Of a stretch of DNA of 64,000 nucleotides, positions 13,196-38,609 are shown piece by piece. Each line of letters begins with the position of its first letter. The stretch's first letter is position 1. Made by a program: the position numbers and the translations under genes. Source of the stretch: Gammaproteobacteria bacterium (lineage in GTDB: Bacteria > Pseudomonadota > Gammaproteobacteria > Eutrophobiales > Eutrophobiaceae); the NCBI GenBank assembly GCA_041556555.1, contig JBFFIE010000006.1, positions 5,452-69,451 of the forward strand. The letters run 5' to 3'. The notes under the pieces are model-generated. The model was not told where the DNA came from and ran no database searches. It saw only the letters and a program-made list of their open reading frames with translations.

Positions 13196-13272
13196 TGTCC
13201 TTGAGGAGCGTTGCGACGGGCTGACCCCGCCAGGCTCGAGAATACAGCAAGTTTCAAACGGCGCTCGCTTAA
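13196..13272 (+). ncRNA. SAH (S-adenosylhomocysteine) riboswitch in the ahcY leader
   Basis: Three conserved SAH-element blocks appear in order: GAGGAGCGTTGCGAC, GCCAGGCTCG and AACGGCGCTCGC. They sit immediately 5' of a GGAGG Shine-Dalgarno and the ahcY ATG at 13289. The context is the one typical for this riboswitch. Confidence 0.7.
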
Positions 13273-13288
13273 TTTGGAGGAAAACCAG

Positions 13289-14719: not shown

Positions 14720-15628
14720 ATGTCAGTCATGGACTCCCAGAAACAGTTTACGCCGAAGTACAGCTTCGAATTTTTTCCGCCACGCACACCGGAAGCTTTC
14801 GGGAAATTACAGACTACCAGTGAGCGCCTGAGCAGGTATCGTCCGGACTTCTTCTCCGTGACCTTTGGTGCCGGCGGCAGTACCCGCACCCGCACTTTTG
14901 ATACCGTCACGGATATTAAGGAAAAGACGGGCATTGAGGCTGCCCCGCACATCTCCTGTATTGGTCAGACGCTAGAGGAGATCCGCGAGGTTCTGGATCT
15001 TTACAAAAATGCCGGTATTCGCCATATAGTTGCCCTGCGTGGTGACCTGCCTTCGGGGCAGGCCAGTTATGGGCCATTGCGTTATGCCAATGAACTTGTG
15101 GAATTCATTCGCAAGGAAACCGGTGATCATTTTCATATTGAAGTAGCGGCCTATCCGGAATTTCATCCCCAGGCACCCAGTCCGACGAAAGACCTGGAGA
15201 ACTTCAAGCGGAAGATCGATGCCGGCGCCAACAGTGCAATAACCCAGTATTTTTATAATACCGAGGCATATTATCGGTTCATTGATGATTGTGAAAAGCT
15301 GGGCATCAATGTTCCTATCGTGCCCGGCGTGATGCCAATTATTAACTGCACGCAACTCGTCCGTTTTTCCGAAGCCTGTGGCGCGGATATACCACGCTGG
15401 ATACTTAAACGCCTGCAGGAATTTGGCGACGACCGGGCCTCGATACGTGCATTTGGTATTGATGTAACCACGCAGATCTGTGCTGATCTGCTGGGCAATG
15501 GTGCGCCGGGTATACATATGTATACAATGAACCAGTCAGAGGCGAGCGAAGCGATTTGGGAAAACCTGATTCTCAAAAAACGCAAGAAGGAACAGAAAGA
15601 GCAGGAGAAGAAAGCCTCTGTCGGTTAG
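14720..15628 (+). CDS. metF: 5,10-methylenetetrahydrofolate reductase
   Basis: 302 aa with a MetF fold. The motif EFFPPRT is present. Confidence 0.88.
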   Translation: MSVMDSQKQFTPKYSFEFFPPRTPEAFGKLQTTSERLSRYRPDFFSVTFGAGGSTRTRTFDTVTDIKEKTGIEAAPHISCIGQTLEEIREVLDLYKNAGIRHIVALRGDLPSGQASYGPLRYANELVEFIRKETGDHFHIEVAAYPEFHPQAPSPTKDLENFKRKIDAGANSAITQYFYNTEAYYRFIDDCEKLGINVPIVPGVMPIINCTQLVRFSEACGADIPRWILKRLQEFGDDRASIRAFGIDVTTQICADLLGNGAPGIHMYTMNQSEASEAIWENLILKKRKKEQKEQEKKASVG

Positions 15629-18446: not shown

Positions 18447-18531
18447 TCGTCAGTTATTTATATAAACTATATAATCTGATAATGTAACGTTGGGGGTGGT
18501 TGTCGAGCGGCTAACGGAGGCAGTTTGTGTG

Positions 18532-20175: not shown

Positions 20176-21842
20176 GTCTCTTAATGGATGCCTTGAAAAA
20201 GGCGGAACGGGAGAAAAAAGAAGCAGCCAAACGTTTAAAGGAGTCGCAGGAAAGGTCCGGTATGGATCTCACCCTGGAAGAAGCGACACCCCGACCTGAA
20301 GCAGAGACAGAGGCAGAAGACAGCACGAAGAGTCAACAGCCGGAAATAACCGCTGATCAGCCAGAACAACAAGAGGAATCTGCCGGTGATCTTTCTCTTT
20401 CACCGATCGAAGACGAGATTGATACCGAGGCACCAACCCAGAAGATTGACCTTTCGAAAATGAAGGACCCCGGTACGTCCGGACTTTCACTTGAAGACAA
20501 AAATGATTTGACTCTTGATCAACCGGATCTGGTGGAGTCGGTTGAGGACGAGGAAACTGACGAGGAAACTGGTCCCGAAGCACCTGTCTTTGCTATCAAT
20601 TCACTTTCAACGGAAGAGGATTATATCTCCCCGCTGGAAGATTCCGGCCTGCATGAATTACCGGAACAAACCCTTGAAGATAGCGGCATCTTTACCCGCT
20701 CACTCGATGAAGGCAAGACTCTGCAGTCAGCACTTTCAGCAGAAGAGCTGGCCAGGGAGATGGGCGATGACCCAAATGCGCCCTTGCCGGTAGCCGCGCA
20801 AACTGTGTTTAATGCCTCTGCCGGTCAAAGCAGCAAGCGACAATTTATGGAATGGTTTTTATTTGTGGCCTGTTTTGCAGTTTTGATCATTGCTGGCAGT
20901 ATTTTTTACTATCTGAAAACAACACCTGAAATCTCGCCTCCGATCCGCCCGCAAATGGCAGAGACCGAGACTGCTACAGTCGAACAGATTATAGAACAGG
21001 CGCAAGTATCTTCAGATGTATCCGGTGAATTTACTAGTACCGAGACAGGACAGGAAATAGTGCTGGATGATTCCGCAGCACAGACAGCCAGTATTGGGAT
21101 ACCTGAAAAACCAGACGCCATAGAGGCTGCTGATAAGGAAACCATTGCCATGCGACAACCTTTGCCAGAGCACAAACAAGGACAGGAAAATATTTTACCG
21201 AACGAAATCAGGGTTGAACCGAGGGTGTTGCAAATAAGTCGCAGCCGTGCTGTCCGCGAGAGTGATTTACTGGTGCATGATGCTTACGCCGACTATAAAG
21301 CCGGAAATTTTGACTCTGCGGCAGCAGCCTACCAGAAAGTACTGATTACCCATCCTGAAAACCGCGATGCACTCCTTGGCCTGGCTGCCATAGCGCAGAA
21401 CAGGGGTAACCAGCAGCAGGCAAGTCAATACTACCTGCGTGTTCTCAAGAATTATCCTTCTGATGTGATTGCCAAGGCTGCTTTGCTTGCATCAACCAAT
21501 AGCAAGGAATCGGCCGCCGAAAATGAAAGCTTGTTAAAATCAATGATCAGCGATTCACCGGACACGGCTGATTTACATTTTATCCTTGGCAACGTATTTG
21601 CCAGTACTTCCCGCTGGAACGATGCGCAACAATCCTTCTTTGAAGCATTCAGGCTGGATAATGAAAATGCAAACTATGCTTATAATCTTGCAGTCAGCCT
21701 GGATCATCTCGGCAAGACGCAGGCTGCCTTGCAATATTACCGTCTGGCAATGGAGTTGGCCGAATCATCTTCAATAACACTGAACACCAACGTCCTTGCC
21801 TCCAGAATTGCTGCGCTCTCTGATTTTTCGCAGGATCAATAA
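20172..21842 (+). CDS. TPR-repeat membrane protein, MshN-like, with a long acidic cytoplasmic N-terminal region
   Basis: GTG start that overlaps the secretin stop (GTGA). The first 220 aa or so are D/E-rich. One TM helix follows, then C-terminal TPR repeats. Confidence 0.6.
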   Translation: MSLLMDALKKAEREKKEAAKRLKESQERSGMDLTLEEATPRPEAETEAEDSTKSQQPEITADQPEQQEESAGDLSLSPIEDEIDTEAPTQKIDLSKMKDPGTSGLSLEDKNDLTLDQPDLVESVEDEETDEETGPEAPVFAINSLSTEEDYISPLEDSGLHELPEQTLEDSGIFTRSLDEGKTLQSALSAEELAREMGDDPNAPLPVAAQTVFNASAGQSSKRQFMEWFLFVACFAVLIIAGSIFYYLKTTPEISPPIRPQMAETETATVEQIIEQAQVSSDVSGEFTSTETGQEIVLDDSAAQTASIGIPEKPDAIEAADKETIAMRQPLPEHKQGQENILPNEIRVEPRVLQISRSRAVRESDLLVHDAYADYKAGNFDSAAAAYQKVLITHPENRDALLGLAAIAQNRGNQQQASQYYLRVLKNYPSDVIAKAALLASTNSKESAAENESLLKSMISDSPDTADLHFILGNVFASTSRWNDAQQSFFEAFRLDNENANYAYNLAVSLDHLGKTQAALQYYRLAMELAESSSITLNTNVLASRIAALSDFSQDQ

Positions 21843-21844: not shown

Positions 21845-23560
21845 ATGGCGAAATCAAATAAGAAACATCTACGTCTGGGTGAAATACTGGTACAGCAAGG
21901 TGTTACCACCCCGGATCAGATCGAGATAGCATTAACCGAGCAAAAGAAAAGCAAGGAAAAGCTGGGCAAGATACTGGTGCGCCTCGGCTTTGCAACAGAA
22001 GCCATCATTCGTGATGTTATCGGCGGTGTCATTGGCCAGGAAAGTGTCAACCTTGATTATGCCGTTCCCGACAGCGAGGCTGTGAAACTGATCCCGAAAA
22101 ACCTCGCCAGACGATTGCATGTCCTGCCCCTTACCTACGACAACACAGCAAAGACACTGACGGTAGCCATGACGGATACCTTCAACGTCGTTGTGCTGGA
22201 CCAGATTAGCGTCCAGGTAGGCCGTGAGATTGAACTGGTTCCTGTGCTCGCCGGCGAGGCCGAAATTGAAAAGGCCATCGACCAGTTTTACGGATTTGAA
22301 TTATCGGTTGATGGCATCCTGAATGAAATTGAAACCGGTGAAATCGACTACCAGAGCCTTGATTCGGAAACGGACGAATACAGTCAGCCGGTAGTAAGAT
22401 TGGTTAATGCATTGTTATCTGATGCGGTAAAGCGTGGGGCATCAGATATTCACTTTGAACCGGAAGAAGGATTCCTGCGTTTCCGTTATCGTATTGATGG
22501 CGTACTGCGACAGATACGTAGTATCCACAAGAACTACTGGTCTGCCATTGCAGTCCGCCTGAAAGTGATGTCGGGCATGGATATTGCTGAAACCCGCGCA
22601 CCACAGGATGGTCGAATTTCTCTTTCCCTCTCCGGCCGTATTGTCGATTTTCGCGTGTCAACCTTGCCGACAGTGCACGGTGAAAATATTGTCCTCCGGG
22701 TACTGGACCGGCAAAAAGGCATTGTCGCACTGGACAAATTGGGGCTTAAGGATGATGCACTGAATACTCTGAAGATCATGGTCGGCCGACCGGAAGGCAT
22801 CATCCTCGTCACCGGGCCCACGGGCAGTGGTAAAACCACAACGCTCTATTCCATCCTCAATTACCTGAATGAGGAAAACGTCAACATCATGACCCTGGAA
22901 GACCCGGTAGAATATCCGACCAGCATGATCCGCCAGACTTCGGCTAGCGAAACTTCGCGCCTGGATTTTGCCAGTGGTATCCGTTCCATGATGCGTCAGG
23001 ACCCCGACATTATCCTGGTCGGTGAGATTCGTGATGAGGACACGGCAAGTATGGCCCTGCGCGCCGCCATGACCGGTCACCAGGTGTTTTCCACCCTGCA
23101 CACCAATTCGGCCCTTGGTGCCATTCCCCGATTGCTGGATATCGGTGTCCAGGCCGATATCCTCGCCGGTAATATCATTGGTGTGCTCGCCCAGCGCCTG
23201 GTCAGGAAATTATGTGATGCCTGCAAGGAATCCTACCAGATGAGTGACCTGGAAAGGACACTTCTGAACCTGAAATCCACAGACAGGCAGCAGGATATTT
23301 TCCGGGCCAAGGGCTGCCAGCAGTGTGATGGTCAGGGTTACCGTGGTCGGTTGGCTATACTGGAAATACTGCACTTTGATGCAGATATGGATGAACTCAT
23401 TGCCCGGCGAGGCACCCAGCGAGAACTCATGCGCGCGGCCTTGTCCAAGGGTTTCAAGACACTGGCTGATTCCGGCTCTGACCGGGTCCTGGATGGCTCA
23501 ACATCACTTGAAGAAGTTTCCCGTGTAATTGACCTGACTGGACGTATAACACACAAGTAA
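21845..23560 (+). CDS. GspE/PilB-family type IV pilus assembly ATPase with an N-terminal MshEN (c-di-GMP-binding) motif pair, MshE-like
   Basis: Two tandem 24-aa motifs are present: RLGEILVQQGV...LTEQ and KLGKILVRLGF.... Walker A (GPTGSGKTTT), Asp box, His box and a tetracysteine motif are also present. Confidence 0.85.
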   Translation: MAKSNKKHLRLGEILVQQGVTTPDQIEIALTEQKKSKEKLGKILVRLGFATEAIIRDVIGGVIGQESVNLDYAVPDSEAVKLIPKNLARRLHVLPLTYDNTAKTLTVAMTDTFNVVVLDQISVQVGREIELVPVLAGEAEIEKAIDQFYGFELSVDGILNEIETGEIDYQSLDSETDEYSQPVVRLVNALLSDAVKRGASDIHFEPEEGFLRFRYRIDGVLRQIRSIHKNYWSAIAVRLKVMSGMDIAETRAPQDGRISLSLSGRIVDFRVSTLPTVHGENIVLRVLDRQKGIVALDKLGLKDDALNTLKIMVGRPEGIILVTGPTGSGKTTTLYSILNYLNEENVNIMTLEDPVEYPTSMIRQTSASETSRLDFASGIRSMMRQDPDIILVGEIRDEDTASMALRAAMTGHQVFSTLHTNSALGAIPRLLDIGVQADILAGNIIGVLAQRLVRKLCDACKESYQMSDLERTLLNLKSTDRQQDIFRAKGCQQCDGQGYRGRLAILEILHFDADMDELIARRGTQRELMRAALSKGFKTLADSGSDRVLDGSTSLEEVSRVIDLTGRITHK

Positions 23561-23563: not shown

Positions 23564-24769
23564 ATGGAAGCATTTCAATATAAAGCAGTTGATGATCGGG
23601 GCCGGATAACCGTCGGCAAGATCGACGCCGTCAATATTGCAGATCTGGAGACGCGCCTCGACAGGATGGGTCTTGACCTGGTCAATTATAAAGACCTTGG
23701 GCCGACTGGACCAAAAATTACCGGCGTTGGTGTTTCGCGTCGTGACCTCATCACATTTTGTTTCCATCTTGAGCAAACCGGTCGTGCCGGCGTGCCGATT
23801 CTGGAGAGCCTCGAAGACCTGCGTGACAGTAGTGATAACCCCAGGCTGCGCGAAGTCATTGCAGCGATGATTGATTCCATCGAGGGTGGGCAAACACTAT
23901 CCCAGGCAATGCGTAATTACCCTGCGGTCTTCGACAGCATATTTTGCAACCTGGTCAGAGCGGGTGAACAGTCGGGTGAAATTGCCCAGGTATTCTATCA
24001 GCTGGGCGAGAACCTGAAATGGCAGGACGAGCAAGCAGCCCAGACCAAGAAACTCCTCATCTATCCGGCATTCGTCGGTACAGTTGTCATAGCCGTTGTT
24101 TTCTTCCTGATGGTCTACCTGGTGCCGGAATTGCTCCGCTTTGTAAAAACCATGGGCCAAGAGCTGCCCATGCACACCAAGATTCTGATCGTGGTTTCCA
24201 ATGCCTTTGTCCAGTACTGGTATCTGTTTGTCCTGATCCCGGTACTGGTGGTTGGCGGATTGATGATTGCGATAAGGGTGAACGAAACTGCAAGGTACCA
24301 ATATGATGCCTTCAAACTAAAAATACCGATTATTGGCCCGATACTTCGCAAAATCATCCTGACTCGCTTGACCAGCTTTTTTGCCATGATGTATGCATCT
24401 GGCATTACCATCATCGAGTGCATTCGTACCGGTGAACAGATAGTAGGTAACAAGGTAATTGAGCAGGCAATGCACCAGGTTGGTCAGCACATTGCCGACG
24501 GCGCAACGCTGAGTACCAGCTTTGAAAGAACAGAACTGTTTCCACCACTGGTGTTAAGAATGATACGTGTTGGCGAGAATACCGGAGCCCTTGAGGAATC
24601 ATTGATCAATATCAGCTACTTTTACACCCGCGATATCAAGGAATCGATTGAAAAATTGCAATCCATGATTGAGCCTACGATGACGGTTGTCCTTGGTGCA
24701 ATTATTGGCTGGGTCATGTTATCTGTCCTTGGACCTATTTATGATCTCATCACTAAAGTCAAAATTTGA
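23564..24769 (+). CDS. GspF/PilC-family inner-membrane platform protein, MshG-like
   Basis: 401 aa. Two GspF repeats and three TM segments are present. Confidence 0.85.
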   Translation: MEAFQYKAVDDRGRITVGKIDAVNIADLETRLDRMGLDLVNYKDLGPTGPKITGVGVSRRDLITFCFHLEQTGRAGVPILESLEDLRDSSDNPRLREVIAAMIDSIEGGQTLSQAMRNYPAVFDSIFCNLVRAGEQSGEIAQVFYQLGENLKWQDEQAAQTKKLLIYPAFVGTVVIAVVFFLMVYLVPELLRFVKTMGQELPMHTKILIVVSNAFVQYWYLFVLIPVLVVGGLMIAIRVNETARYQYDAFKLKIPIIGPILRKIILTRLTSFFAMMYASGITIIECIRTGEQIVGNKVIEQAMHQVGQHIADGATLSTSFERTELFPPLVLRMIRVGENTGALEESLINISYFYTRDIKESIEKLQSMIEPTMTVVLGAIIGWVMLSVLGPIYDLITKVKI

Positions 24770-26351
24770 TACGGGCGACCGCAGGGCAATCCTGCTCAGT
24801 TCAACCAAGCTTTTTGTTTACCTCTGGACAGACGGCAAGCTTGGTCGGACCTATATGTTTGACGTAACCGATCAGGGCCGGGCATTTTTTGACAATTACA
24901 TTAAGGAATCCGAGCTTCTGGAAACCTATTTCGTGGTTGATATTGTCGAGGAGGAATATCGCCAAGAAACGATACCTCATGTATTTGGTGGCGATCGCCG
25001 GGCGGTCATAAAGCGCAAAAAGGAGCGACTGTTTCGAGACACACCCTATTTTCATGCTGAGATACAGGGTCGGGTTGAAGAGGGCAGACGGGATGACCGG
25101 GTCCTGTTTACAGCATTAACCAACCAGGACATTATCCAGCCCTGGATTGATATTCTTCTGGAAAACAAGGTTCCGCTTGCCGGGATTTATTCCATTCCGC
25201 AGATTACCTCGTTATTACTCGACAAGCTGCCCGAGCCCTCGGAACACATGCTGATAGTCAGCATGCACAGCATTACAGGCCTCAGGCAGACATTTTTTCA
25301 CAAAAAGGAACTTAAAATCAGCCGACTGGTTGATCTGCCGCGCTACGGGACATCGCCCTATGCACCGATCATCCGCGAGGAGGTTGATGTCATTACCCGG
25401 TATCTTAACAGCTTGCGCCTCATTGACAGCGAGAAGCCATACGAGGTTTATTTTCTGGCTGACAACAAACTGCTGAGCGAGATCAAAAGCGAGTTGGATG
25501 AGTCTGCTTCGGTTAACTATCACTTTGTAAATCTGAATACCTTTGGCAGAGAGTGCGGACTTGAAATTGAAACAGCCAATCCGTTCAGTGAAAAACTGTT
25601 TATTTATCATCTGCTGAAAGAGAGGCCCGGTAATTACTACGCCCAGAAAAACGAAACGCATTATTATCGTATGTCACGCATCAGGGGCGCGATGTATGTC
25701 ACCAGCGTCTGCATGGTTCTCGCCAGCCTAATCTGGGGCAGTATTAATTTCACAATAGGTCTGAGTTACAGAAAACAGGCAGAATTGTCCCAGAAACAAT
25801 ACCAGTATTACAGTGAGCGGCTGAAAGAGGCACGCAAAGAGCTTGCTCCGAGTCCGGTCAGCCCCTATGACCTTAAAACACTGGTGGAAATGGCAGACAC
25901 ACTGAAAAAATACAAGACAGACCCTGCCGATATCTTCCAGGTCATCAGTCGTGGGCTGGCCCGGTTTCCACAGATTGAACTGACCAATATCACCTGGAAT
26001 TCATCCAGTAAACCTGCAAGCCAGGAAAACACCGTTGCCACCGGAGATCTCGGACGTGGTTTGGCAGGTTATAGCACGCTTGAAGTTAATAGCTCGGATT
26101 ACAAGTATTTCCAGAATATTTATCTCGATGGTTATCTAGCGTCCTTCGATGGCAACTATCGCAAGGGCATAGCCACGATAAACAATTTTGTTGAATCACT
26201 AAGAGGCATTGATGCGGTTGAGGATGTAGCTGTGATCAAGCTGCCATTAGACACCGGCTCAGATAATCCCCTGAGCGGTGATACCAATAATGAATCTCTG
26301 GAAGCTAATTTTTCAGTCAGGCTGGTAATGGGAGTCATGCCAAATGGATAG
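24741..26351 (+). CDS. PilM/PilN-type fusion assembly protein (MshI-like). Cytoplasmic actin-like N-domain, one TM helix, periplasmic coiled-coil domain
   Basis: ATG at 24741 overlaps the platform gene by 29 nt. About 330 aa are cytoplasmic. A TM helix (MYVTSVCMVLASLIWGSINF) is followed by a PilN-like periplasmic part. Confidence 0.5.
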   Translation: MISSLKSKFDTGDRRAILLSSTKLFVYLWTDGKLGRTYMFDVTDQGRAFFDNYIKESELLETYFVVDIVEEEYRQETIPHVFGGDRRAVIKRKKERLFRDTPYFHAEIQGRVEEGRRDDRVLFTALTNQDIIQPWIDILLENKVPLAGIYSIPQITSLLLDKLPEPSEHMLIVSMHSITGLRQTFFHKKELKISRLVDLPRYGTSPYAPIIREEVDVITRYLNSLRLIDSEKPYEVYFLADNKLLSEIKSELDESASVNYHFVNLNTFGRECGLEIETANPFSEKLFIYHLLKERPGNYYAQKNETHYYRMSRIRGAMYVTSVCMVLASLIWGSINFTIGLSYRKQAELSQKQYQYYSERLKEARKELAPSPVSPYDLKTLVEMADTLKKYKTDPADIFQVISRGLARFPQIELTNITWNSSSKPASQENTVATGDLGRGLAGYSTLEVNSSDYKYFQNIYLDGYLASFDGNYRKGIATINNFVESLRGIDAVEDVAVIKLPLDTGSDNPLSGDTNNESLEANFSVRLVMGVMPNG

Positions 26352-26961
26352 GGGCATGGATGTTTCGGTTCTCAAGGGCGCAGCTATTGTGTTTCTCATT
26401 AGTCTTTTGTTCAGTGGCGGCCTCGTCTGGAGCGGGTGGTATTTCAAGGATGAAATGCTGAATGCCTACAACAGGGCGAAAGCCCAACAAAAAAGTGTTG
26501 CAAGCAGCTATGTTTCCATTGATGAGGAGAAAAGACTGGTCAGGGAATATCTGCCAGTATTCAAGAATCTCCATACGTTTGGTGTATTTGGTCAGGAACA
26601 TAGACTTAATTGGCTGGAAACACTGCGCAGTACGGGTGAAAAGCTGAAACTCCCGGCATTGCGCTACGAAATTGATTCACAAGATATCTATGTTCCTGAT
26701 TACACGGTCAATAGTGGAACCTTCAAAATATACGCCAGCCCGATGATATTGAATGTTGAACTGGTTCACGAAATTGATTTACTTGATCTGCTGGATAACC
26801 TTGATCGGAAGGCACAGGGGATTTATAACCTTAAATCATGTGAACTGATCCGGTCTCCAAAGGATGTTTCCCGGGAAAAATTAGATTCATATGTAAATGC
26901 AGATTGCAAGCTGATGTGGTTTAACATCAAGAAATCTGACGGTAGAACGATAGATATCTAG
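26344..26961 (+). CDS. PilO-like (MshJ-like) bitopic inner-membrane protein
   Basis: 205 aa with an N-terminal TM helix, then a coiled coil, then a periplasmic domain. It overlaps the previous gene by 8 nt (ATGGATAG). Confidence 0.45.
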   Translation: MDRGMDVSVLKGAAIVFLISLLFSGGLVWSGWYFKDEMLNAYNRAKAQQKSVASSYVSIDEEKRLVREYLPVFKNLHTFGVFGQEHRLNWLETLRSTGEKLKLPALRYEIDSQDIYVPDYTVNSGTFKIYASPMILNVELVHEIDLLDLLDNLDRKAQGIYNLKSCELIRSPKDVSREKLDSYVNADCKLMWFNIKKSDGRTIDI

Positions 26962-26964
26962 ATA

Positions 26965-27438
26965 ATGAAAAAAGGCAAACACATCATTATATTCCTGGCA
27001 GGTAGCCTTTTTGTTACCCTGCTTCCGGCCAGAGATTTGTCTTCTCAGGATAACATCGGTCGCCTGTTCATGACACCGGAAGAGAGGAGAACGCTGGATC
27101 TATTACGGAATCAGGAAGATCGCTCGACTATTACCGTTCCAAGTCTTGCCATTGAAGATGATCCTGATGAGGTATTGGATGAACAAATAACCGGTATAAC
27201 GGTTGACGGAATTGTTTACAGGAAAAACGGCAAGAGCACAGCCTGGGTCAATGATGGAAATACCTACGAAGGAGACCTTTCTACCCAGTATCTTGACATC
27301 AACCCGGAGCATATCAGCCCCGGTGGCGTAAAGATAAAAGTCAAGAATAACGATAAATCCAGATTAATCAGGATGGAAACCGGGCAAACCTATGATCCTG
27401 TAAAAGATGAAGTTGTTGACCCGGTAAAGTACAAATAA
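26965..27438 (+). CDS. PilP-like (MshK-like) periplasmic protein with a signal peptide
   Basis: 157 aa with a signal peptide. Its position and size match the PilP/MshK slot. Confidence 0.4.
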   Translation: MKKGKHIIIFLAGSLFVTLLPARDLSSQDNIGRLFMTPEERRTLDLLRNQEDRSTITVPSLAIEDDPDEVLDEQITGITVDGIVYRKNGKSTAWVNDGNTYEGDLSTQYLDINPEHISPGGVKIKVKNNDKSRLIRMETGQTYDPVKDEVVDPVKYK

Positions 27439-27483: not shown

Positions 27484-29178
27484 ATGAAAAAACCTGTGCC
27501 ACAAAAACAAAAGGGTGCCGTATTACTTGCTACTACACTTATCTTGATACTGGGCTCTGCCTGGTTATTGATTATCAACCTTAACAACAATGCCAGGCGT
27601 TTTGCGAATTACGAGGAGAGTATGCAAGTACTCAGAGAGGCAAAACAGGCCCTGATTGCCTATGCGGTTAACTATTACGAATCCAATCCTGGCCATTTCG
27701 GTTTTTTACCTTGCCCGGATTCAAGTACCACTGGTGAGGAGGGTAACCAGGAAGCCCCCTGTGGGGCACGATATGTCAATGTCATGGGTAAGTTTCCCTG
27801 GCAAGCGCTGGATCTTCCCCCACTGAAGGATGCTTATGGTCAATGCCTGTGGTATGCCGTCTCCGGTGCGGTCAAGGGAGGTAGTAGCCGCTCTGAAATG
27901 TTGAATGAAGATACCCATGGCACATTCCAGATTATGGATCCGGATGGCGTCACAGTGGTTGCCGGGGCCACACCCAGGGAAAGGCCGGTGGCCGTTATTT
28001 TCGCCCCGGGACGTTCCATTAATAACCAGACACGGGCCGATAGCAACGGCGCTATCTGTGAAGGGAATGAAGCGGTGAATTATGTGGCGAGTAATTATCT
28101 TGATGCCGAGGTACCGTCAAACCCCCTGTTGGGTATCAGGAATTATGTCGTAAGTTCCACAGCGGATACGGTAGACCAGTTCATAATGACAGGCGATCCG
28201 GAGAGTGAGGATTTCAATGATCTGATGCTTTACATCACGATTGATGAGATCTTTGATGCCATCAAGCAGCGTAACGATTTTGCAGATAAGCTTTACGACG
28301 AGGCCGCCTTGAATAATCTTACCTATCGGGTAGCAGAATGTATTGCCGGCTATGGCCAGTACCATGCCGATAAACACGTTGACGATGGTGATGGGGATTA
28401 CAATCGCAGCCTGCCTTGGCCTGCGCGTTTCGATTTTGCGGATGATGACAACCGTTACCGGTATGAAGCAGAATATTATGATATTGATAATAGTTCACTG
28501 CTCATGGGGAGAGTCCCCATAGATATCAGCAACAGCAACGATGAGATATATAATGGCTGCAGTTCACCGCATACCTGTTTACCCCCGTCTGACAGACTCA
28601 TAGACACCAGTACGTCGCCATATTCGGGGTTTTGCAGGGCGTTCTGGCTGGTGTATTCGGATAACCCGATTAGTCCATCTGCCACAAATGAGTTGATTGA
28701 CTTATGGAATAACTGGAAAGACCATTTATTCTATATTGTGTCGGAGGAATATCAGCCACAGCCCATGAGCGCAGATACAGATGCCTGCCTCGACACTACT
28801 CAATCACCGGATGAAATCGAACCTAGATGTATTACAATAAATGTGCCGTTCACTTATCCGCCGAATGACCAGTCGTTGAATATGACAATGGTGGCTGCAA
28901 TAGTTATTTTCTCTAATGAGACATTACCATCGTTATCACAGTCAAGATCGGCACCACCGATCGATACCGATGACAAGCAGAATCCTGCCTCGAATCTGGA
29001 AGACCGGAATATCATCCCCTATACGACTTCTGATGTAGGGATAGATACAGAGTTTTCCAGTAATCAAGTCAGTGCTACTTTTAATGATGTTCTTTATTGC
29101 ATCAATGAAGATACGGATGAAACGTCGATTGGCGGACCACCGCCGTTCAAGGCGGGCAGATGCCCGGTGAATCCATAA
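27484..29178 (+). CDS. Large PilX_N-type pilus-associated protein (pseudopilin-like N-terminal helix without the canonical G-F-T-L-I-E)
   Basis: The N-terminus QKGAVLLATTLILILGSAWLL resembles the PilX N-domain. It shares an LPCPD...C...G-x-F/L-PW-x-x-L-x-x-P block with the downstream pilin. The large C-terminal region is acidic. Confidence 0.5.
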   Translation: MKKPVPQKQKGAVLLATTLILILGSAWLLIINLNNNARRFANYEESMQVLREAKQALIAYAVNYYESNPGHFGFLPCPDSSTTGEEGNQEAPCGARYVNVMGKFPWQALDLPPLKDAYGQCLWYAVSGAVKGGSSRSEMLNEDTHGTFQIMDPDGVTVVAGATPRERPVAVIFAPGRSINNQTRADSNGAICEGNEAVNYVASNYLDAEVPSNPLLGIRNYVVSSTADTVDQFIMTGDPESEDFNDLMLYITIDEIFDAIKQRNDFADKLYDEAALNNLTYRVAECIAGYGQYHADKHVDDGDGDYNRSLPWPARFDFADDDNRYRYEAEYYDIDNSSLLMGRVPIDISNSNDEIYNGCSSPHTCLPPSDRLIDTSTSPYSGFCRAFWLVYSDNPISPSATNELIDLWNNWKDHLFYIVSEEYQPQPMSADTDACLDTTQSPDEIEPRCITINVPFTYPPNDQSLNMTMVAAIVIFSNETLPSLSQSRSAPPIDTDDKQNPASNLEDRNIIPYTTSDVGIDTEFSSNQVSATFNDVLYCINEDTDETSIGGPPPFKAGRCPVNP

Positions 29179-29181
29179 GCC

Positions 29182-29946
29182 ATGAACCAAAAAAACAAAA
29201 GCCTTGCTAGCCACGGTTTCACCCTGATAGAACTCGCTATCGTGTTGTTCATTGTCAGCCTGTTACTGGGCGGCTTGCTCATGCCCTATGCGACCAGTGT
29301 CGAACAACGGGAGCGTGAGGACACAGCCGAGATCCTGGAGGACATCAAGGAAGCTCTGTATGGACACGCATTGGTTAACGGTTACCTGCCTTGCCCGGAT
29401 TGCGAGACAGGCCAGGCCTGTGCAGCCGGTACACCGGATGACGGGATAGAAGACAGAAATGGCAACCTGTGTTCAGTAACGCTTTCTGCTCAAAATACCT
29501 ACACAGGGAATCTGCCCTGGGCCACGCTCGGCGTTCCCCAGTTTGATGCCTGGGAAAAACCATTTACCTACAGCGTGACCGATACTTTTTCAAATGACGC
29601 GGTTCCTTTTACCCTGACGGATACCGGGACGATAGACATACTCGACCAGGACGGCGCCGCCACGGCCCGGATAGCGCAGAGCATCCCCGCTATCGTAGTT
29701 TCCCACGGCAAGGATCATTATGTGCCCGCGCAAAGCGCAGACCAGGTAGAAAACTACGAGCGCGATGCGAACATATATGGCACAACCAATAGTATCCTCA
29801 CAGCATATTCAGGTGATAATGCCGGTGAATTTGTCTTTACCGATTACAGGCTCTTGGGGGGTAATATTGATTACGACGATATGATGATCTGGATTTCCCC
29901 GTTTGTCATCAAAAACCGGATGATTGCCGCAGGTCAACTGCCCTGA
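29182..29946 (+). CDS. Type IV (prepilin-type) minor pilin, Cys-rich
   Basis: The prepilin cleavage/methylation motif reads HG|FTLIELAIVLFIV. Five Cys residues fall within about 40 aa (LPCPDCETGQACAAG...NLC). It is the last gene of the operon. Confidence 0.75.
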   Translation: MNQKNKSLASHGFTLIELAIVLFIVSLLLGGLLMPYATSVEQREREDTAEILEDIKEALYGHALVNGYLPCPDCETGQACAAGTPDDGIEDRNGNLCSVTLSAQNTYTGNLPWATLGVPQFDAWEKPFTYSVTDTFSNDAVPFTLTDTGTIDILDQDGAATARIAQSIPAIVVSHGKDHYVPAQSADQVENYERDANIYGTTNSILTAYSGDNAGEFVFTDYRLLGGNIDYDDMMIWISPFVIKNRMIAAGQLP

Positions 29947-31610
29947 TTCAGAGACCGTGACTTCTCCAGCCTGAAGCATACCTTGCCATCCGAATTATGT
30001 TTCAGTTTCAACTCATAACCCAGTGTCCCGGCCTGCTTGGCTGCCTGTAACAGGCCAATACCCAGACCATTGTCTGATTTAACCGGTTCCTGAAAAAGCC
30101 TTTCGACGAGTTCTTTGGGTATGGCCTGGCCGTTATCCTCTACTTCAATAGAAATTCCTTCATCGTTTCCCTGCAGGGTAACGGTAATATCGATTTCCGG
30201 ATCCAGCTTGCGTTTGTTTATAGCATTTTCAACGAGGTTTTCACTGACACTATCAAATAAATCAAAAGGGATACGAAGGTCACTGTTGATATCATCTTTG
30301 AACTGAATATCAAACGACCTGTAATGATTCATGAACTCATTCCACCAGTCTCTGAGATAGATTTCGTCCGCGATCAGTTGCTCGGGTGATTGTAACTTGT
30401 TGACTGCTTGTTCCAGGCGCTGTATGAAATAAGGAAACTGCTTTTTCAGTATCAACAATGACCTGGCATCTCTTTCGTCTGTATCAGCTTGCAAAATTGT
30501 TACCATGGAGTGCATGGACTGCAAGAGGTTCTTGATGTCATGAGTAATCCTGGCACCGGTCTCAAATATGGCCTGAAGATGTGCCTGCTTGGCAAGTTCA
30601 ATCTCGTTCAACTTGGCCTGATAGAAATATTCAATCAGCCGGATTAATAATTTGCAATGTATCAGCACGGCCCCGCCTACTCGTATATGCGTGTAAATCT
30701 CAATGGGCTTATTACTAATATCCAGGCTAATCCTGTGGCTGGATTTTTTCCCCTTTAGCTGGTTATTCCAGTATGTACCGGATATCCAGTCCAGTGTAAG
30801 CAGCTTTTCTATGGCCACATCCAGGTATTCCTCAGCAGAATCATGTTGATCCTTGAGCGCGGAAAGTTCATCCAGCCAGGTTTCAAACGGGGTTCCGATA
30901 CTGAGCAGTGATTTGGTCCAGATCTGGGAAAATCCACTGAGCCCGATATTTGCAGAAAGCAACCAGCTGATAAAAAGCAGGAATAGGCCAATTGCCAGGA
31001 GAATCCGGATCAGCGCTGTGACGTAATCGGTGCCAGCAGAATACATGATGACAAGACTGCCGAGCGCAATCAAACTCACCAGTAATGAAGTAGTGATAGC
31101 ATATATGATGTCAACTGGAACCGGTGATCGTTTTGCAGGTTTGAATAACGGCATTAAAACCGGGACCAGTAGCAAGAGGTAGTTCAGTGATGATATGCCC
31201 TTGGGCAGGGTGGCAATCGTGAACATCATGGGCAGGCAGATAAGAAGTATCTCAGAGAACAGAAATACCATGACGATATAGTAAACAAAACGCTCAGCAC
31301 GGCTGTTGACAACGCGTCCTCCAACGATGCCCAGTATCAGTACCAGCCAGACAAAGACAAGCCACCAGTTGATAAAATAGACAAACAGGAAACTCAGCAG
31401 AATAAGTAACAGACTGTTATACCAGCTATAACGTTCTTCAGTCCTTTCTATGGGTTGCCAGAGGAGAAAAAAACCCAGGTGAATGAGAAACAGCGCCCGT
31501 GAGAGCAGACTGCCGAAATCAATCCAGATCGCAAGATGCAGACTTGCCAGCATTGCTGCCAATAACAGGTAATCGCGACGATCACTGACGAATCTGAAGA
31601 GACTGGTCAT
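29934..31610 (-). CDS. Multi-TM sensor histidine kinase, PilS-like (about 8 predicted TM helices + DHp + HATPase_c)
   Basis: The N-terminal 250 aa or so are polytopic. The H-box reads ARITHDIKNLL, followed by N and G boxes (NGLGIGL). It is convergent with the pilus operon and overlaps it by 13 nt. Confidence 0.75.
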   Translation of the reverse strand: MTSLFRFVSDRRDYLLLAAMLASLHLAIWIDFGSLLSRALFLIHLGFFLLWQPIERTEERYSWYNSLLLILLSFLFVYFINWWLVFVWLVLILGIVGGRVVNSRAERFVYYIVMVFLFSEILLICLPMMFTIATLPKGISSLNYLLLLVPVLMPLFKPAKRSPVPVDIIYAITTSLLVSLIALGSLVIMYSAGTDYVTALIRILLAIGLFLLFISWLLSANIGLSGFSQIWTKSLLSIGTPFETWLDELSALKDQHDSAEEYLDVAIEKLLTLDWISGTYWNNQLKGKKSSHRISLDISNKPIEIYTHIRVGGAVLIHCKLLIRLIEYFYQAKLNEIELAKQAHLQAIFETGARITHDIKNLLQSMHSMVTILQADTDERDARSLLILKKQFPYFIQRLEQAVNKLQSPEQLIADEIYLRDWWNEFMNHYRSFDIQFKDDINSDLRIPFDLFDSVSENLVENAINKRKLDPEIDITVTLQGNDEGISIEVEDNGQAIPKELVERLFQEPVKSDNGLGIGLLQAAKQAGTLGYELKLKHNSDGKVCFRLEKSRSLNQGS

Positions 31611-31667: not shown

Positions 31668-32453
31668 TTGTCGGGATCACTAATGAAATATCCTGTCGGG
31701 GCCATTGCCCGTTATAGTTTGCTGGAAGCAGTAAGAAGTCATATTTTCCTGCTCGTGGTACCGGGCGTGATAATTCTTTTCGGCATCTCGCAATTCGTTG
31801 GTGAACTGGCCGTCACTGAATCCAGGGAAATTCAGGCTGCTATAACCGCTTATATAATTCGAGTTCTTGCCGTAATTATTACATGCCTCTTTATTGTTTT
31901 ATCCTGTTTGCGGGAATTTAATGAAAAGACAGTCGATATAATTTTTGCATTACCGGTTCCACGATATGTTTATTACCTGGGCAAGCTGTTCGGTTTCTCA
32001 GGCCTTGTTTTTATAGTAGCCGTGTTATTTTCGTTACCACTTTTTCTTTATGCAGATATGATGCCAGTAGCTTACTGGTCAATATCGCTGGTCTGCGAGT
32101 TATTTATTATGACGAGCCTCAGCCTGCTGTTTTTACTGACTCTTGGAAATGCCACATTGACCCTGAGCCTGGTCTTTGCGTTCTATGTTTTGTCACGAAC
32201 CATAAATACAATCCAGTTAATAGCAGCCAGCCCTGTTATTGAAGCAACATCTTTTTCGCAACATTTAATAAGCGGTATCATTGATGTGATCGCCTTTCTA
32301 TTGCCGGATTTTTCCCGCTTTGCCCAAACGGAATGGTTAATGACAGGTTCAGTCGATATCAACGAAATAAGTTTTGTATTTTTGCAGACGACGGTCTATG
32401 TGGTGTTATTATCAGCCGCAGCACTGTTTGACCTCTATCGAAAGGAATTCTAG
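31668..32453 (+). CDS. ABC-2 family transporter permease
   Basis: 261 aa with about 6 TM helices. The hydrophobicity profile is ABC-2 type. Confidence 0.6.
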   Translation: MSGSLMKYPVGAIARYSLLEAVRSHIFLLVVPGVIILFGISQFVGELAVTESREIQAAITAYIIRVLAVIITCLFIVLSCLREFNEKTVDIIFALPVPRYVYYLGKLFGFSGLVFIVAVLFSLPLFLYADMMPVAYWSISLVCELFIMTSLSLLFLLTLGNATLTLSLVFAFYVLSRTINTIQLIAASPVIEATSFSQHLISGIIDVIAFLLPDFSRFAQTEWLMTGSVDINEISFVFLQTTVYVVLLSAAALFDLYRKEF

Positions 32454-33196
32454 TGTTTCATAGATTCAGTCGCTCGGGTTTATTTACCCATTCTACCCAA
32501 CGGCCCGTTTCCAGCGTTCCCGGGACAGTGTCACTGGTCTTGTTGCTTGCCCTGGGTCTGCAGTTCGTCTTGCATGGTTATTATGTTGAGAGGGATGTGG
32601 TCGGTAAATCGCTTACGCTGGCACCATCCGAACACCATGCCAGCATGCTGGGCCTGGGGGACAATATCGCGATCGCCAAGATACTGATGCTTTGGTTGCA
32701 GGCCTTTGATAATCAACCGGGCCTGAGCATACCGCTTGCTAGACTTGACTACGGGAGGGTAACAGGCTGGCTGCAACTGATACTTGATCTGGATCCACGG
32801 GGTCAATACCCGTTATTTGCAGCGGCACGCATCTATGCCGGGATTCAGGACGAGGACAAACAACGCCAGATGCTTGGATTTGTCTACCGGAATTTTTTCA
32901 AGGATCCAAACCATCGATGGCCGGCCCTGGCGCACGCCGTGTACATAGCCAAACACCGCCTGAATGATATGCCATTAGCCTTAAAATATGCCGAGGCAAT
33001 GGCAGATAATGTAACCGCAAAAGATGTACCCTTCTGGGTCAAGCAGATGCACATTTATGTGCTCGAAGATATGGGTGAACTGGAAGCGGCAAGGATTCTG
33101 CTGGGCGGGCTCATCGAGAGTGGTACCATCAGGGATCCAAATGAGCTCGAGTTCCTGCGTTCACGGCTCAGGAATCTGGAGGAAAAGACTGAATAG
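32453..33196 (+). CDS. Hypothetical membrane-anchored protein (the PilG-slot gene in a pilGHI-like arrangement)
   Basis: GTG start that overlaps the permease stop (TAGTG). One N-terminal TM helix is present. I recognise no domain. Confidence 0.4.
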   Translation: MFHRFSRSGLFTHSTQRPVSSVPGTVSLVLLLALGLQFVLHGYYVERDVVGKSLTLAPSEHHASMLGLGDNIAIAKILMLWLQAFDNQPGLSIPLARLDYGRVTGWLQLILDLDPRGQYPLFAAARIYAGIQDEDKQRQMLGFVYRNFFKDPNHRWPALAHAVYIAKHRLNDMPLALKYAEAMADNVTAKDVPFWVKQMHIYVLEDMGELEAARILLGGLIESGTIRDPNELEFLRSRLRNLEEKTE

Positions 33197-33331
33197 GAGC
33201 GGGAATCGGGACCTGGCGATGTTCAATAAAAGTGTCGAGATTTCGACAAACTGATGACAGCTCGTCAGTTTTTCCCGTGTTCACCCAGATATTAAATTAT
33301 AAAAGTTAATAATTACAGATAGTTAGTGGTT

Positions 33332-33346
33332 TGGCATGGAAAATGC
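33332..33346 (+). promoter_or_regulatory. Sigma-54 (-24/-12) promoter of the major pilin gene
   Basis: The sequence is TGGCATGGAAAATGC. The GG and GC elements are at the consensus spacing (TGGCAC-N5-TTGC). It lies 38 nt upstream of the pilin ATG. Confidence 0.65.
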
Positions 33347-33383: not shown

Positions 33384-34097
33384 ATGACGACAATGAAAAG
33401 ACAATCCGGTTTTACCCTGGTCGAAATTGCCATCGTACTGGTTATCGTTGGCCTGTTGCTCGGAGGCATACTGAAAGGCCAGGAATTGATCAACAGTGCC
33501 CGAGTCCGCAACCTGGCGGATCAGAACGCCGCGGTTCAGGCAGCCTATTATGGTTTCATCGACCGCTATCGGCAGATTCCCGGAGATTGGCCGGCAGCTG
33601 CGGCGACCACCGGTATCGGGGTGACTATCGTCAGCCCGACTTCAGCCAATGCCGGTAATGGTCGTATCGATGACGGTGACTGGGACGAAGCCTCCGGAGT
33701 CTGGGAACAGCTGGCCGGCGCCGGTTTTATCGCGGGTAACTACAGTGGTGGCGGTACTGCCGCGAACTACACTGACGGTACCCGTGCGCCAGTGAATGCA
33801 TTTAATGGTTCGGTATTACTTGGTCGCATGGACCAGTACCAGGACAATGGCACCGCCGTTGAGCGCCTGGCCTTTTCCTTCGGCAACCAGATCCCGGCTA
33901 AGATCCTGCGTGAGCTGGATGTGAAGCTGGATGATGGTCGGCCACTGACCGGTATTCTAAGGGCCTCGGGGACGGCCACCGGTGGTTGGGCCACCATGTT
34001 TACCTCTGTTGCTGCCTGTACTGCCGGTACGGCCCCGAATATAGAATGGGACGTGGCCACGGACTCACAGGATTGTGGCGCAGTCTCGCTCTATTAA
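33384..34097 (+). CDS. Type IVa major pilin candidate (prepilin with a C-terminal disulfide loop)
   Basis: The leader MTTMKRQSG|FTLVEIAIVLVIVGLL has the class III signal with Glu at +5. A C-terminal Cys pair (C...19 aa...C) forms the D-region. Its own sigma-54 promoter lies upstream and an intrinsic terminator downstream. Confidence 0.8.
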   Translation: MTTMKRQSGFTLVEIAIVLVIVGLLLGGILKGQELINSARVRNLADQNAAVQAAYYGFIDRYRQIPGDWPAAAATTGIGVTIVSPTSANAGNGRIDDGDWDEASGVWEQLAGAGFIAGNYSGGGTAANYTDGTRAPVNAFNGSVLLGRMDQYQDNGTAVERLAFSFGNQIPAKILRELDVKLDDGRPLTGILRASGTATGGWATMFTSVAACTAGTAPNIEWDVATDSQDCGAVSLY

Positions 34098-34176: not shown

Positions 34177-34896
34177 ATGACTATTCCTGTAGTTGAAATC
34201 AATGCTGTGTCCAAGTCCTATGGGCGTAAACAGGTCCTTTCAGATATCAGTCTTTCTATCTCTGAGGGTGAATACATTGGTCTCGTGGGTCTGAACGGTG
34301 CCGGCAAAACAACCCTGATTAAATGTCTGCTGGATTTCTGTGCCCTGGACAGTGGCCAAATCCGTATCTTCGGTCGTGAACATCGGGATACTGAATCCAG
34401 GAAATCGCTGGTTTTTTTGCCGGAGAAGTTTATTCCACCCTATTTCCTGAAGGGTAATGATTTTCTCAAATACATGGCAGCACTTTATCAAATTAATGTC
34501 GATAACGAATTAATTGATTCATTGTTACAAGTGATGGATCTGGATGCAGAGTCACTGGACCAGCCGGTCTACAAATATTCGAAAGGTATGTCACAGAAAC
34601 TGGGTTTAATAGCCAGCCTCATGACCGGGAGGCAGTTACTGGTTTACGACGAACCCATGAGTGGTCTGGATCCCAGAGCCAGGGCGCGTTTAAAAAAGCA
34701 TTTGCTATCACTCAAGTCTGCCGGGCAAACCCTGTTTTATTCTTCCCATTTGCTCGAAGACGTTAAAGCCATGTGCGATCGTCTTGTCATTCTGCATCGC
34801 GGTCAGGTCCGTTTTTTTGGCACACTGGATGAATGTATAAAATCATTTGTTGCAAACGATCTGGAAGAGGCCTACTTACATTGCATCGATCAGTGA
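34177..34896 (+). CDS. ABC transporter ATP-binding protein (ABC-2 / CcmA-like)
   Basis: Walker A (GLNGAGKTT), ABC signature (YSKGMSQKL) and Walker B (LLVYDEP) are present. Confidence 0.85.
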   Translation: MTIPVVEINAVSKSYGRKQVLSDISLSISEGEYIGLVGLNGAGKTTLIKCLLDFCALDSGQIRIFGREHRDTESRKSLVFLPEKFIPPYFLKGNDFLKYMAALYQINVDNELIDSLLQVMDLDAESLDQPVYKYSKGMSQKLGLIASLMTGRQLLVYDEPMSGLDPRARARLKKHLLSLKSAGQTLFYSSHLLEDVKAMCDRLVILHRGQVRFFGTLDECIKSFVANDLEEAYLHCIDQ

Positions 34897-37229: not shown

Positions 37230-38609
37230 TCAGAACATTTCCTTTACTTTTTCCAACAGGGATTTCTCACTGGTTTCATCCACAAGTGCTTGCAGTGAAC
37301 GTAAAGCGGAATTTTGGGAATCAATTTTAAGTCCAATGCTGATATATGCTTCTGTTTTATCAACATCATTATTGGCGAAAGATTTCTCTGCAAGGAAGGC
37401 GTAGCGTTCTGCGATCTCCTTAATGCCATTTTTTGCAATTTCATTGTCCGGCCTGATCTTGAGTAACCTGGAAAAATAATAATAGGCGTTATCTTTTTCC
37501 GGATAGGTCAATTTGTATTCCTCCAGGCTTTTATTGCCGAGCCAGACCAGGGCATTAATCATTTCTTCCGTTACTTTTATATCAGGGCTGGGCATCAACT
37601 GTGAATGGCCGGCAGAATCAAGCGTGGTTGCAACAGGAATTGACTCAAGATCAACAACAGGAATGCTTTTGAGCCGGTAATCAACATATTGTACAGCACC
37701 GAAGAAAACTACAGAAACGAATAGAAGTAAGAATAAAACAATGTGATGCGCTTTGAATTTTTTCTCCGCATATTTTCCTGTCAGGTCAAGGTCCAGTAAT
37801 GAAGGTTCCGATTTCCCCAGTATCTCCTTGATGCCGTCCATCATTTCAACCGCGCTGGCAAATCGCTCCTCCTTGTTTTTAGCCATGATTTTGTCAAGAA
37901 ATGGCTGGTACCTGGACAGGCTCTCGGGAAGTTCGGGTACCGGGGCTTTCAGGTGCTGGGTCACAACCTTGTAAACATTTTTTCCATAGTACGGTTTAAC
38001 ACCGGTAAGCATTTCATAGAACACACAGCCAAGGCTGTAGATATCGGACCGTTCATCAATTTCATTTCCGCCGGCCTGTTCCGGGCTGATGTAATTCGGA
38101 CTTCCCAGGAAACCGGAAGTTTTGGTCAGATCCAGATCATTGTCCATTTGTTTTGCTATGCCAAAATCTGTCAACAGGGGCGTATTGTCTTCACGAAAAA
38201 GAATGTTGGCAGGCTTTACATCGCGATGAACAATACCATGCTCATGGGCAACTTTAAGACCACTGCCGATCTGCATCAGGTAATTCAGGGCCTCAACCGG
38301 ATCAAAGGGAATGCCCATGCGTGATTTGAGATCACCGCCTTTTATATACTCCATTGAAATGTACAGGGAATTGGAATCCGTAACCCCGATGTCATGGACG
38401 GTTATGATGTTGGGATGGTTTAATGAGGCTACAATACGACCTTCCTCGAGAAATCGCCCGATACGCACGGCATCGTCACTCTCATTACCCGCGAGTTCCA
38501 TGATTTTCAGCACAACAGGCCTGGAAAGGGATAGTTGGGTAGCCAGATAAACGCTGGCCATACCTCCCTTGCCGATTTGCTCGGTTATCTCGTAGCCGGG
38601 GATTTCCAT
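37230..38609 (-). CDS. Hanks-type Ser/Thr protein kinase with a TM helix and a C-terminal TPR-like extracytoplasmic domain
   Basis: The kinase motifs GKGGMASVY, VLK, HRDVKPANILF, DFGIAK and SPEQ are present. One TM helix follows (HHIVLFLLLFVSVVFFGAV). Confidence 0.85.
   Translation of the reverse strand: MEIPGYEITEQIGKGGMASVYLATQLSLSRPVVLKIMELAGNESDDAVRIGRFLEEGRIVASLNHPNIITVHDIGVTDSNSLYISMEYIKGGDLKSRMGIPFDPVEALNYLMQIGSGLKVAHEHGIVHRDVKPANILFREDNTPLLTDFGIAKQMDNDLDLTKTSGFLGSPNYISPEQAGGNEIDERSDIYSLGCVFYEMLTGVKPYYGKNVYKVVTQHLKAPVPELPESLSRYQPFLDKIMAKNKEERFASAVEMMDGIKEILGKSEPSLLDLDLTGKYAEKKFKAHHIVLFLLLFVSVVFFGAVQYVDYRLKSIPVVDLESIPVATTLDSAGHSQLMPSPDIKVTEEMINALVWLGNKSLEEYKLTYPEKDNAYYYFSRLLKIRPDNEIAKNGIKEIAERYAFLAEKSFANNDVDKTEAYISIGLKIDSQNSALRSLQALVDETSEKSLLEKVKEMF

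Follow-up and report, generated by a model that had tools for sequence, protein, structure and literature searches.

Minor pilins determine the initiation of type IV filaments and the function of their tips. To our knowledge, nearly all of what is currently known about minor pilins comes from sets of the GspHIJK and PilVWX type. Subunits of the GspK/PilK/PilX/MshP class invariably lack a glutamate at position +5 (Glu+5), which implicates them in the most apical position of the filament (PMC13533445). Systems related to the mannose-sensitive hemagglutinin (MSHA) pilus, termed MSH, are characteristically encoded in a single locus without a prepilin peptidase gene (PMC6668835), and Sideroxydans and Gallionella were noted to carry rearranged MSH-like clusters whose function is unknown (PMC3770913). 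Here, we describe an MSHA-like gene cluster in a stretch of 64,000 nucleotides (nt) from Gammaproteobacteria bacterium (assembly GCA_041556555.1, contig JBFFIE010000006.1, positions 5,452 to 69,451 of the forward strand), hereafter the window. The analysis centers on two adjacent genes of this cluster, BIG and PIL254, whose products share one head domain. What is new here is an undescribed pilin head-domain family in an uncharacterized MSHA-like system.

BIG encodes a pilin-like protein of 564 amino acids (aa; positions 27484–29178 of the window, + strand), and PIL254 encodes a prepilin of 254 aa with a single copy of the head domain (29182–29946, + strand); the coordinates of the two open reading frames (ORFs) leave 3 nt between the stop of BIG and the start of PIL254. 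The leader of PIL254, G12 followed by FTLIE17, scored 24.8 bits with the N_methyl model PF07963 (cut-off 21.2), and the leader of BIG, MKKPVPQKQKG followed by AVLL, is prepilin-like and lacks Glu+5. Directly after the long N-terminal pilin helix, both proteins carry the pattern (F/Y)LPCPD ... C ... G-x-(L/F)-P-W-x-x-L. The block of BIG reads G73-FLPCPD ... E86-G87 ... C93 ... G102-KFPWQALDLP112 (27700–27819, + strand). That of PIL254 starts with G67-YLPCPDCETGQAC, ahead of C97 and G109-NLPWATLGVP119, and reads in full G67-YLPCPD-C74-ETGQA-C80 ... D87-G-I-E-D91 ... C97 ... G109-NLPWATLGVP119 (29380–29538, + strand). An initial annotation of the window had drawn attention to this block; its coordinates are exact, and both sequence strings that it quoted occur in the two ORFs. 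It gave the loop between the two halves of the block as 15–30 aa, where we measured 22 aa in BIG and 35 aa in PIL254. It also placed the block directly behind the transmembrane segment; the block does follow α-1, but it comes after the whole helix of 52–58 residues, about 30 residues past the membrane-spanning part.

In a direct comparison, BLASTP aligned residues 44–177 of one protein with residues 46–177 of the other at 25% identity (E 6e-6). Homologue sets of 319 and 421 proteins were collected for the two proteins at E ≤ 1e-3. When the two families were aligned with hhalign, the match spanned 212 columns (probability 99.4%, E 5.8e-21) and paired the whole pilin with residues 3–258 of BIG. 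After removal of the hydrophobic N-terminal helix the E value was still 2.2e-21, so the profile match is not driven by that helix. At its C-terminal end, the shared region has the same element in both families, (F/Y)-(D/N)-D-x-x-I-x-I, with a helix after it. Since the family profiles align over the whole pilin, the two proteins share the globular pilin domain in its entirety, and by sequence comparison BIG and PIL254 are paralogues over the whole pilin length. The likeness of the two blocks thus lies well beyond chance by the pairwise and family alignments and by the retention of the motif in homologues. The proposed duplication of a head domain also holds, except that the duplicated unit is this whole domain rather than a short cysteine module. 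In the window, only BIG and PIL254 carry the domain; a further prepilin, PIL237, is without it.

The motif is kept in both families. Among the best 120 homologues of each protein, LPCP was present in 117/120 pilin and 118/120 BIG homologues, and G-x-(L/F)-P-W in 116/120 and 118/120, respectively. In the joint alignment, the positions invariant across both families are P-C-P, one Gly of (D/E)-G, the second Cys, G..P-W, a Tyr, and the Ala and Gly of an A-V-I-x-x-x-G strand. Residues P76, C77, C93, G102, P105, and W106 of BIG are invariant in 114 homologues, as are C71, P72, G88, P112, D232, and D233 of PIL254 in 119. The last two residues of PIL254, L253 and P254, are invariant in an alignment of 26 sequences and kept in at least 90% of the 119 homologues.

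The C-termini themselves are conserved to the final residue, as ...A-G-x-L-P-COOH in the pilin family (29937–29946) and as ...C-P in BIG (29161–29175). C-terminal strands have been reported to act in the licensing of tip complexes (PMC13533445), and by analogy the conserved C-termini of BIG and PIL254 may be relevant to such licensing.

Within BIG, the domain occurs twice. Head copy 1 (residues ~38–265; 27595–28278, + strand) is homologous by hhalign to the whole globular part of PIL254, and a degenerate head copy 2 was delimited by hhalign and predicted strands at residues ~271–564 (28294–29175, + strand). Residues 122–252 of BIG were matched to residues 415–540 (28726–29103), the confident core of copy 2, with a probability of 95.5% and an E value of 1.4e-8. 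Along this match, LWYAVSG of copy 1 corresponds to LFYxVS of copy 2, VAVIFAPG..Q.R to AAxVxFS..L..Q.R, NYLD to NxLE, and FNDxxxYI to FNDxLYCI. In copy 2, LPCPD is replaced by LPWPA (residues 309–314). A weaker extension, obtained from greedy and global alignments, suggests that the helix at residues 279–297 together with LPWPA matches α-1C and LPCPD. The strands predicted by AlphaFold2 (AF2) for PIL254 and for copies 1 and 2 of BIG line up with the alignments.

The domain is also widespread and recurs in other arrangements. When its profile was searched against 1.84 billion cluster representatives, at least 7,863 clusters matched at E ≤ 1e-3 and 3,415 at E ≤ 1e-10. Two of the relatives, P0242 (751 aa) and P0245 (631 aa), contain three complete tandem head copies behind a single GFTLxE leader. 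Because three full copies occur in tandem in these proteins, the head domain is a self-contained, repeatable unit. P0242 lies outside any pilus machine cluster in both of its loci (L081, 603–2858; L082, 1034–3289), and is directly followed by a PIL237-like prepilin, and P0245 (L083, 771–2666) adjoins a divergent gene for a sigma-54 activator. The metagenomic protein P0241 (659 aa) consists of a BIG-type protein and the downstream pilin, with a second N_methyl segment at 508–529 and a second LPCP at 566; it is either a true fusion or a gene-calling read-through.

None of the described families that were searched accounts for the domain. BIG matched no Pfam or NCBIfam family at E ≤ 0.01, including T2SSK (PF03934/PF21687), PilX_N (PF14341), and the NCBIfam GspK models. 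BIG had previously been labeled PilX_N-type; PF14341 matched one of 27 BIG-family members, at E 1.1, and we do not retain the label. For PIL254, Pfam and NCBIfam returned nothing beyond the N_methyl motif except sub-threshold N-terminal matches to GspG and GspH. The GspG model TIGR01710 scored 29.5 bits (cut-off 88.85), and T2SSG (PF08334) was sub-threshold in 22/119 pilin relatives, with a best E value of 3.3e-4. This T2SSG match covers the helix up to 'NG.LP' only, as seen in the one member that showed it among 20 homologues scanned singly. The GspG relationship is a lead from sequence, not a result. Against all PDB sequences, the family profiles matched the N-terminal helix only, or nothing, and the module profile matched no PDB chain at E ≤ 10. 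No adhesin, lectin, or vWA domain was detected in head-domain proteins by the Pfam and NCBIfam scans.

The AF2 models were confident for both PIL254 (pLDDT 93.3, pTM 0.87) and BIG (pLDDT 89.2, pTM 0.89). As in pilins, they consist of an N-terminal helix of 52–58 residues (15–66 in PIL254 and 10–67 in BIG, by DSSP) followed by a β-sheet, and the motif block comes directly after the helix. Foldseek found no significant neighbor in the PDB, and any signal came solely from pilins and GspG pseudopilins; the best hit of PIL254 was a gonococcal pilin (E 0.05), GspG reached a TM score of ~0.45 over the target, and BIG had no hit. On sequence criteria the head is thus a type IV pilin head domain of ~215 aa that has no name yet and falls in no described family, which agrees with the initial annotation, where no named family could be assigned.

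The two genes stand at the end of a cluster whose order is sigma-54 response regulator, ATPase, MshL, TPR protein, MshE, MshG, three unassigned genes, BIG, and PIL254. The machine genes, all on the + strand, encode an ExeA/MshM-like ATPase (17124–18446; PF13401 AAA_22 and a partial match to the ExeA-like TIGR03015), the MshL secretin (18490–20175; TIGR02519, 264.3 bits against a cut-off of 250.2), a TPR protein (20172–21842; Pfam and NCBIfam), an MshE-type ATPase with the MshEN domain (21845–23560; PF00437 and PF05157), and a GspF/MshG platform protein (23564–24769; PF00482). The MacSyFinder definition of the MSH system has mshA, mshE, mshG, and mshL, along with mshM, as mandatory genes. Of these, the window encodes an MshL-type secretin, MshE with MshEN, MshG, and an MshM-type ATPase, the last assigned from ExeA-like models. 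Homologues of MshA and of MshB/C/D/O/P/Q were not detected with Pfam and NCBIfam, in which the two prepilins show generic N_methyl or GspG/H N-terminal hits only. Between the platform gene and BIG lie three conserved genes without a Pfam hit (554, 205, and 157 aa; 24687–27438, + strand), recognized by their synteny, which is kept in the 80 loci described below and in Rugamonas. Their products may be PilM/N/O/P-like alignment proteins. As listed, the 554-aa ORF starts at a TTG codon and shares 83 nt (24687–24769) with the end of the platform gene; its true start is probably further downstream.

Apart from PIL254 and PIL237, the 64-kb window encodes no canonical prepilin. PIL237 (33384–34097, + strand; N_methyl), a candidate for the major subunit, carries a C-terminal pair of Cys. 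The interval from PIL254 to PIL237 contains a histidine kinase gene convergent with PIL254 (29934–31610, − strand) and the genes for an ABC-2-like membrane protein of 261 aa (31668–32453) and for a 247-aa protein with a weak DUF2946-type hit (32453–33196); an ABC ATPase gene (34177–34896) follows PIL237. In part of the lineages, and even in Rugamonas (L084), the 261- and 247-aa genes accompany the cluster, suggesting that the pilus system has an unrecognized accessory module. Upstream of PIL237, about 40 nt from its start, TGGCATggaaaATGC (33331–33345, + strand) has the spacing of a −24 GG/−12 GC element, and this fits the sigma-54 activator and the histidine kinase of the cluster. Similar −24/−12 elements were found upstream of PIL237 homologues at L001, L006, and L046 only (3/46 loci, one of them from the same species), against a background of 0.2% of 220-nt windows. 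Over the whole window, matches to the sigma-54 consensus were not enriched (48 found, 40 expected).

One genome per species was scanned for the cluster, and 466 stretches were found to encode BIG relatives; the locus counts given here refer to the best 80 of them. One matched stretch, in an uncultured gammaproteobacterial metagenome-assembled genome, is 95% identical to the window. The other BIG loci belong to Gallionellaceae, Woeseiaceae, Chromatiaceae, Thiotrichales, Burkholderiales, and related groups. Gene order is conserved among the 80 loci. In 76 of them, the gene immediately downstream of BIG is a PIL254 homologue, and the remaining four end at a contig edge. Each locus has one to three canonical prepilins, and no GspHIJK or FimU-PilVWX-type set was found in any of the 80. 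In many loci, a PIL237 homologue, sometimes duplicated, directly follows the PIL254 homologue. Rugamonas sp. CCM 8940 (L084, 1–12953) has the same machine but no BIG. There, a PIL254 homologue of the two-Cys type comes directly after the machine genes and is followed by homologues of the 261- and 247-aa genes and then by a PIL237-like prepilin of 190 aa. The two genes behind the Rugamonas pilin, of 264 and 260 aa, were considered as split halves of BIG; this reading was rejected, as they are homologous to the 261- and 247-aa genes of the window.

The N-termini of the two families differ in a way that bears on their place in the filament. In the BIG family, A-A-L-L and a hydrophobic helix come after a basic leader with Gly-1 (106/107), position +5 is occupied by Ile, Val, or Leu and never by Glu, and PF07963 does not match BIG. 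In the PIL254 family, the leader is G followed by F-T-L-I-E, with Gly-1 in 114/114 and Glu+5 in 117/117. BIG therefore shows the feature that defines the GspK/PilK functional class, a pilin-like N-terminus without Glu+5. Since the apical subunits of that class likewise lack Glu+5, we propose that BIG is apical and, by analogy, probably a tip cap.

Taken together, BIG and PIL254 are paralogues sharing one unnamed head domain, and we regard it as likely that BIG is at the apex of the filament with PIL254 beneath it. Gene duplication would have produced BIG and PIL254, and BIG carries two tandem copies, the second of them degenerate. Both proteins would be subunits of a filament assembled by the MSHA-like machine (MshL, the MshM-like ATPase, the TPR protein, MshE, and MshG). 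BIG would cap the filament or initiate it as a primer, PIL254 would dock under BIG via its Glu+5 and the homologous head, and the filament would elongate by addition of either PIL254 or PIL237, the second prepilin. In each head, the Pro-Cys-Pro break of LPCP would end α-1 and mark the beginning of the domain. The LPCP Cys would pair with the universal Cys 16–26 residues downstream, stapling the variable loop with its conserved (D/E)-G, and G-x-(L/F)-P-W-x-x-L would lead into the β-sheet: D-x-W ... (F/W)-Y, A-V-I-x-(S/A)-x-G, and (F)-(N/D)-D ... I. The two proteins had been thought of as tip or minor subunits. This is plausible for BIG, which lacks Glu+5, but is unproven for PIL254, which may be the major subunit in some lineages.

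Several observations weigh against this arrangement. In Gallionellaceae loci, no prepilin other than the PIL254 type was seen within 10 kb, and PIL254 may accordingly be the major subunit and not a tip adaptor. BIG is not universal: since Rugamonas has the machine and a PIL254 homologue but no BIG, PIL254 by this gene content works without BIG. The pilin-like fold of the modeled head rests on its topology together with weak Foldseek hits. Finally, we infer both the contact between BIG and PIL254 and the disulfide pairing of the cysteines, the latter from their co-occurrence.

We hold it to be possible, though improbable, that PIL254 is instead the major pilin or pseudopilin, BIG its paralogue-derived cap, and PIL237 an accessory or alternative subunit, perhaps in a secretion-type pseudopilus. 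PIL254 is the only prepilin that is always present, as the Gallionellaceae and Rugamonas loci illustrate, and it is conserved to its last residue, as major pseudopilins are. Its faint likeness to T2SSG and to TIGR01710 points the same way, but the GspG score is far under the cut-off and the T2SSG match is confined to the helix. The arrangement of the genes also speaks against a major PIL254: its gene stands at the machine operon's end, starting 3 nt behind BIG, whereas PIL237 has its own upstream region of 187 nt with the sigma-54-like −24/−12 element and, like many major pilin genes, occurs in duplicate in several loci. Moreover, a major pilin gene can lie elsewhere in the genome, and mshA is treated as a 'loner' gene (PMC6668835).

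A more speculative idea, which we think unlikely, is that the MSHA-like lineage swapped the three-protein tip complex (GspI/J/K, PilV/W/X, or MshD/O/P) for copies of a single head domain. Two copies in BIG and one in PIL254 would then form a pseudo-trimeric priming complex, of which the three-copy prepilins would be a fused version.

The cysteines were also compared across the homologues, as the initial annotation had suggested, and one pair, the LPCP Cys and the last Cys of the inter-motif loop, is universal and the only pair common to both families. PIL254 has four Cys in total (71, 74, 80, and 97), within 27 residues, rather than the five first reported; the reported CxxxxxC pair is present (C74-x5-C80). 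The inter-motif loop holds exactly one Cys in 116/118 BIG homologues, and either one (n = 55) or three (n = 59) in the 114 pilin homologues with both motifs. Downstream of the motif there are zero, two, or four. An even total of Cys was counted in 102/114 homologues of BIG and in 109/119 of the pilin. The CxxxxxC pair is specific to a clade: it is missing in 55/114 pilin homologues and in all BIG homologues, and Massilia, Duganella, and Rugamonas, for example, lack it. No conserved His was found in the pilin-family, BIG-family, or joint alignments.

Of the two functions first suggested for these cysteines, disulfides or metal binding, the pattern fits the former. Because Cys are gained and lost in twos, the proteins are exported, and no His is conserved, the sequences point to structural disulfides and not to a metal site. 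That the Cys-rich block is a metal-binding site (Zn, Fe, or Cu) displayed on the pilus we consider very unlikely. PIL254 does have its four Cys close together, including CxxxxxC, and a conserved acidic D-G-x-E-D in the loop that might bind Ca2+. However, a metal domain was expected to show four or more conserved Cys/His ligands with fixed spacing, and only two Cys are conserved across the families; their counts are even and shift in steps of two, and the proteins are exported into an oxidizing compartment. With the CxxxxxC pair clade-specific, two Cys conserved, and no His, the metal-site reading was rejected.

That the motif is a generic minor-pilin or pseudopilin feature, or a chance likeness without specific meaning, has next to no probability and was rejected: the LP after the helix and D-x-W-G..F.Y presumably resemble 'NGrYP' and the DPWG..Y.Y of GspG-type pseudopilins, but the family profiles match at E 5.8e-21, the module is covered by no Pfam or NCBIfam pilin model and by no PDB chain (E ≤ 10) despite the many solved pilins and pseudopilins, PIL237 of the same locus is without it, and a Cys pair is conserved, so that it is not the PilV/FimT-type feature without conserved cysteines that had been named as the finding's possible undoing.

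Other features of the window were noted around the cluster. A few kb downstream of it lies an ORF for a Ser/Thr protein kinase-like protein (459 aa; 37230–38609, − strand) with a C-terminal TPR-like region. Elsewhere in the window, an S-adenosylhomocysteine (SAH) riboswitch (13197–13273, + strand; RF01057, 55.4 bits against a gathering score of 37) stands before an adenosylhomocysteinase-like ORF (13211–14704), which is preceded by a metK-like ORF (11953–13122) and followed by a metF-like ORF (14720–15628), an ordinary methyl-cycle arrangement.

The machine described here, with one to three pilins, occurs in hundreds of environmental species of Beta- and Gammaproteobacteria, among them Woeseiaceae, Chromatiaceae, Oxalobacteraceae, and the iron-oxidizing Gallionellaceae. 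It offers an undescribed head-domain family to define, one duplicated both between genes and in tandem within genes, and a natural test of the minimum number of distinct subunits for filament priming. Culturable entry points for genetics exist both with BIG (Ferrigenium and Sideroxydans) and without it (Rugamonas, Massilia, and Duganella). No principle is overturned, as the proteins remain pilins in a type IV filament cluster.

Compared with the MSHA system of Vibrio cholerae, the cluster has the same MshL, ExeA/MshM-type ATPase, TPR protein, MshE with MshEN, and MshG, likewise in a single locus without a prepilin peptidase gene. The gene order differs, however, BIG and PIL254 stand in place of MshB/C/D/O/P/Q, and the cluster described here comes with a two-component system, including a sigma-54 activator, and with ABC-type genes. 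With GspG pseudopilins, PIL254 shares an α-1 that ends in N-G-x-(Y/L)-P and sub-threshold matches to PF08334 and TIGR01710, and GspG is among its top non-significant Foldseek hits. The PIL254-type head is nonetheless ~100 aa longer, contains a C-terminal helix and the conserved Cys staple, and shows no sequence match to GspG past α-1.

The modular minor pilins (PilB and PilC of Streptococcus sanguinis, TcpB/CofB, and CpaL) also consist of a pilin module with one or more added domains, and are thought to be located at the tip (PMC13533445). In BIG, by contrast, the added module duplicates the pilin head itself, no adhesin, lectin, or vWA domain was detected, and relatives carry three copies behind one leader. 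From the GspK/PilK/PilX/MshP class BIG differs in that its extra mass is a tandem pilin-head copy and not an inserted α-domain, in that it has no sequence match to the family models, in that no GspI/GspJ-type partners are encoded with it, and in that it is dispensable in some lineages. Like the members of this class, BIG has a Gly-1 leader and a hydrophobic helix without Glu+5, exceeds the other pilins in size, belongs to the machine locus, where another pilin gene adjoins it, and is expected to start the filament as its first subunit.

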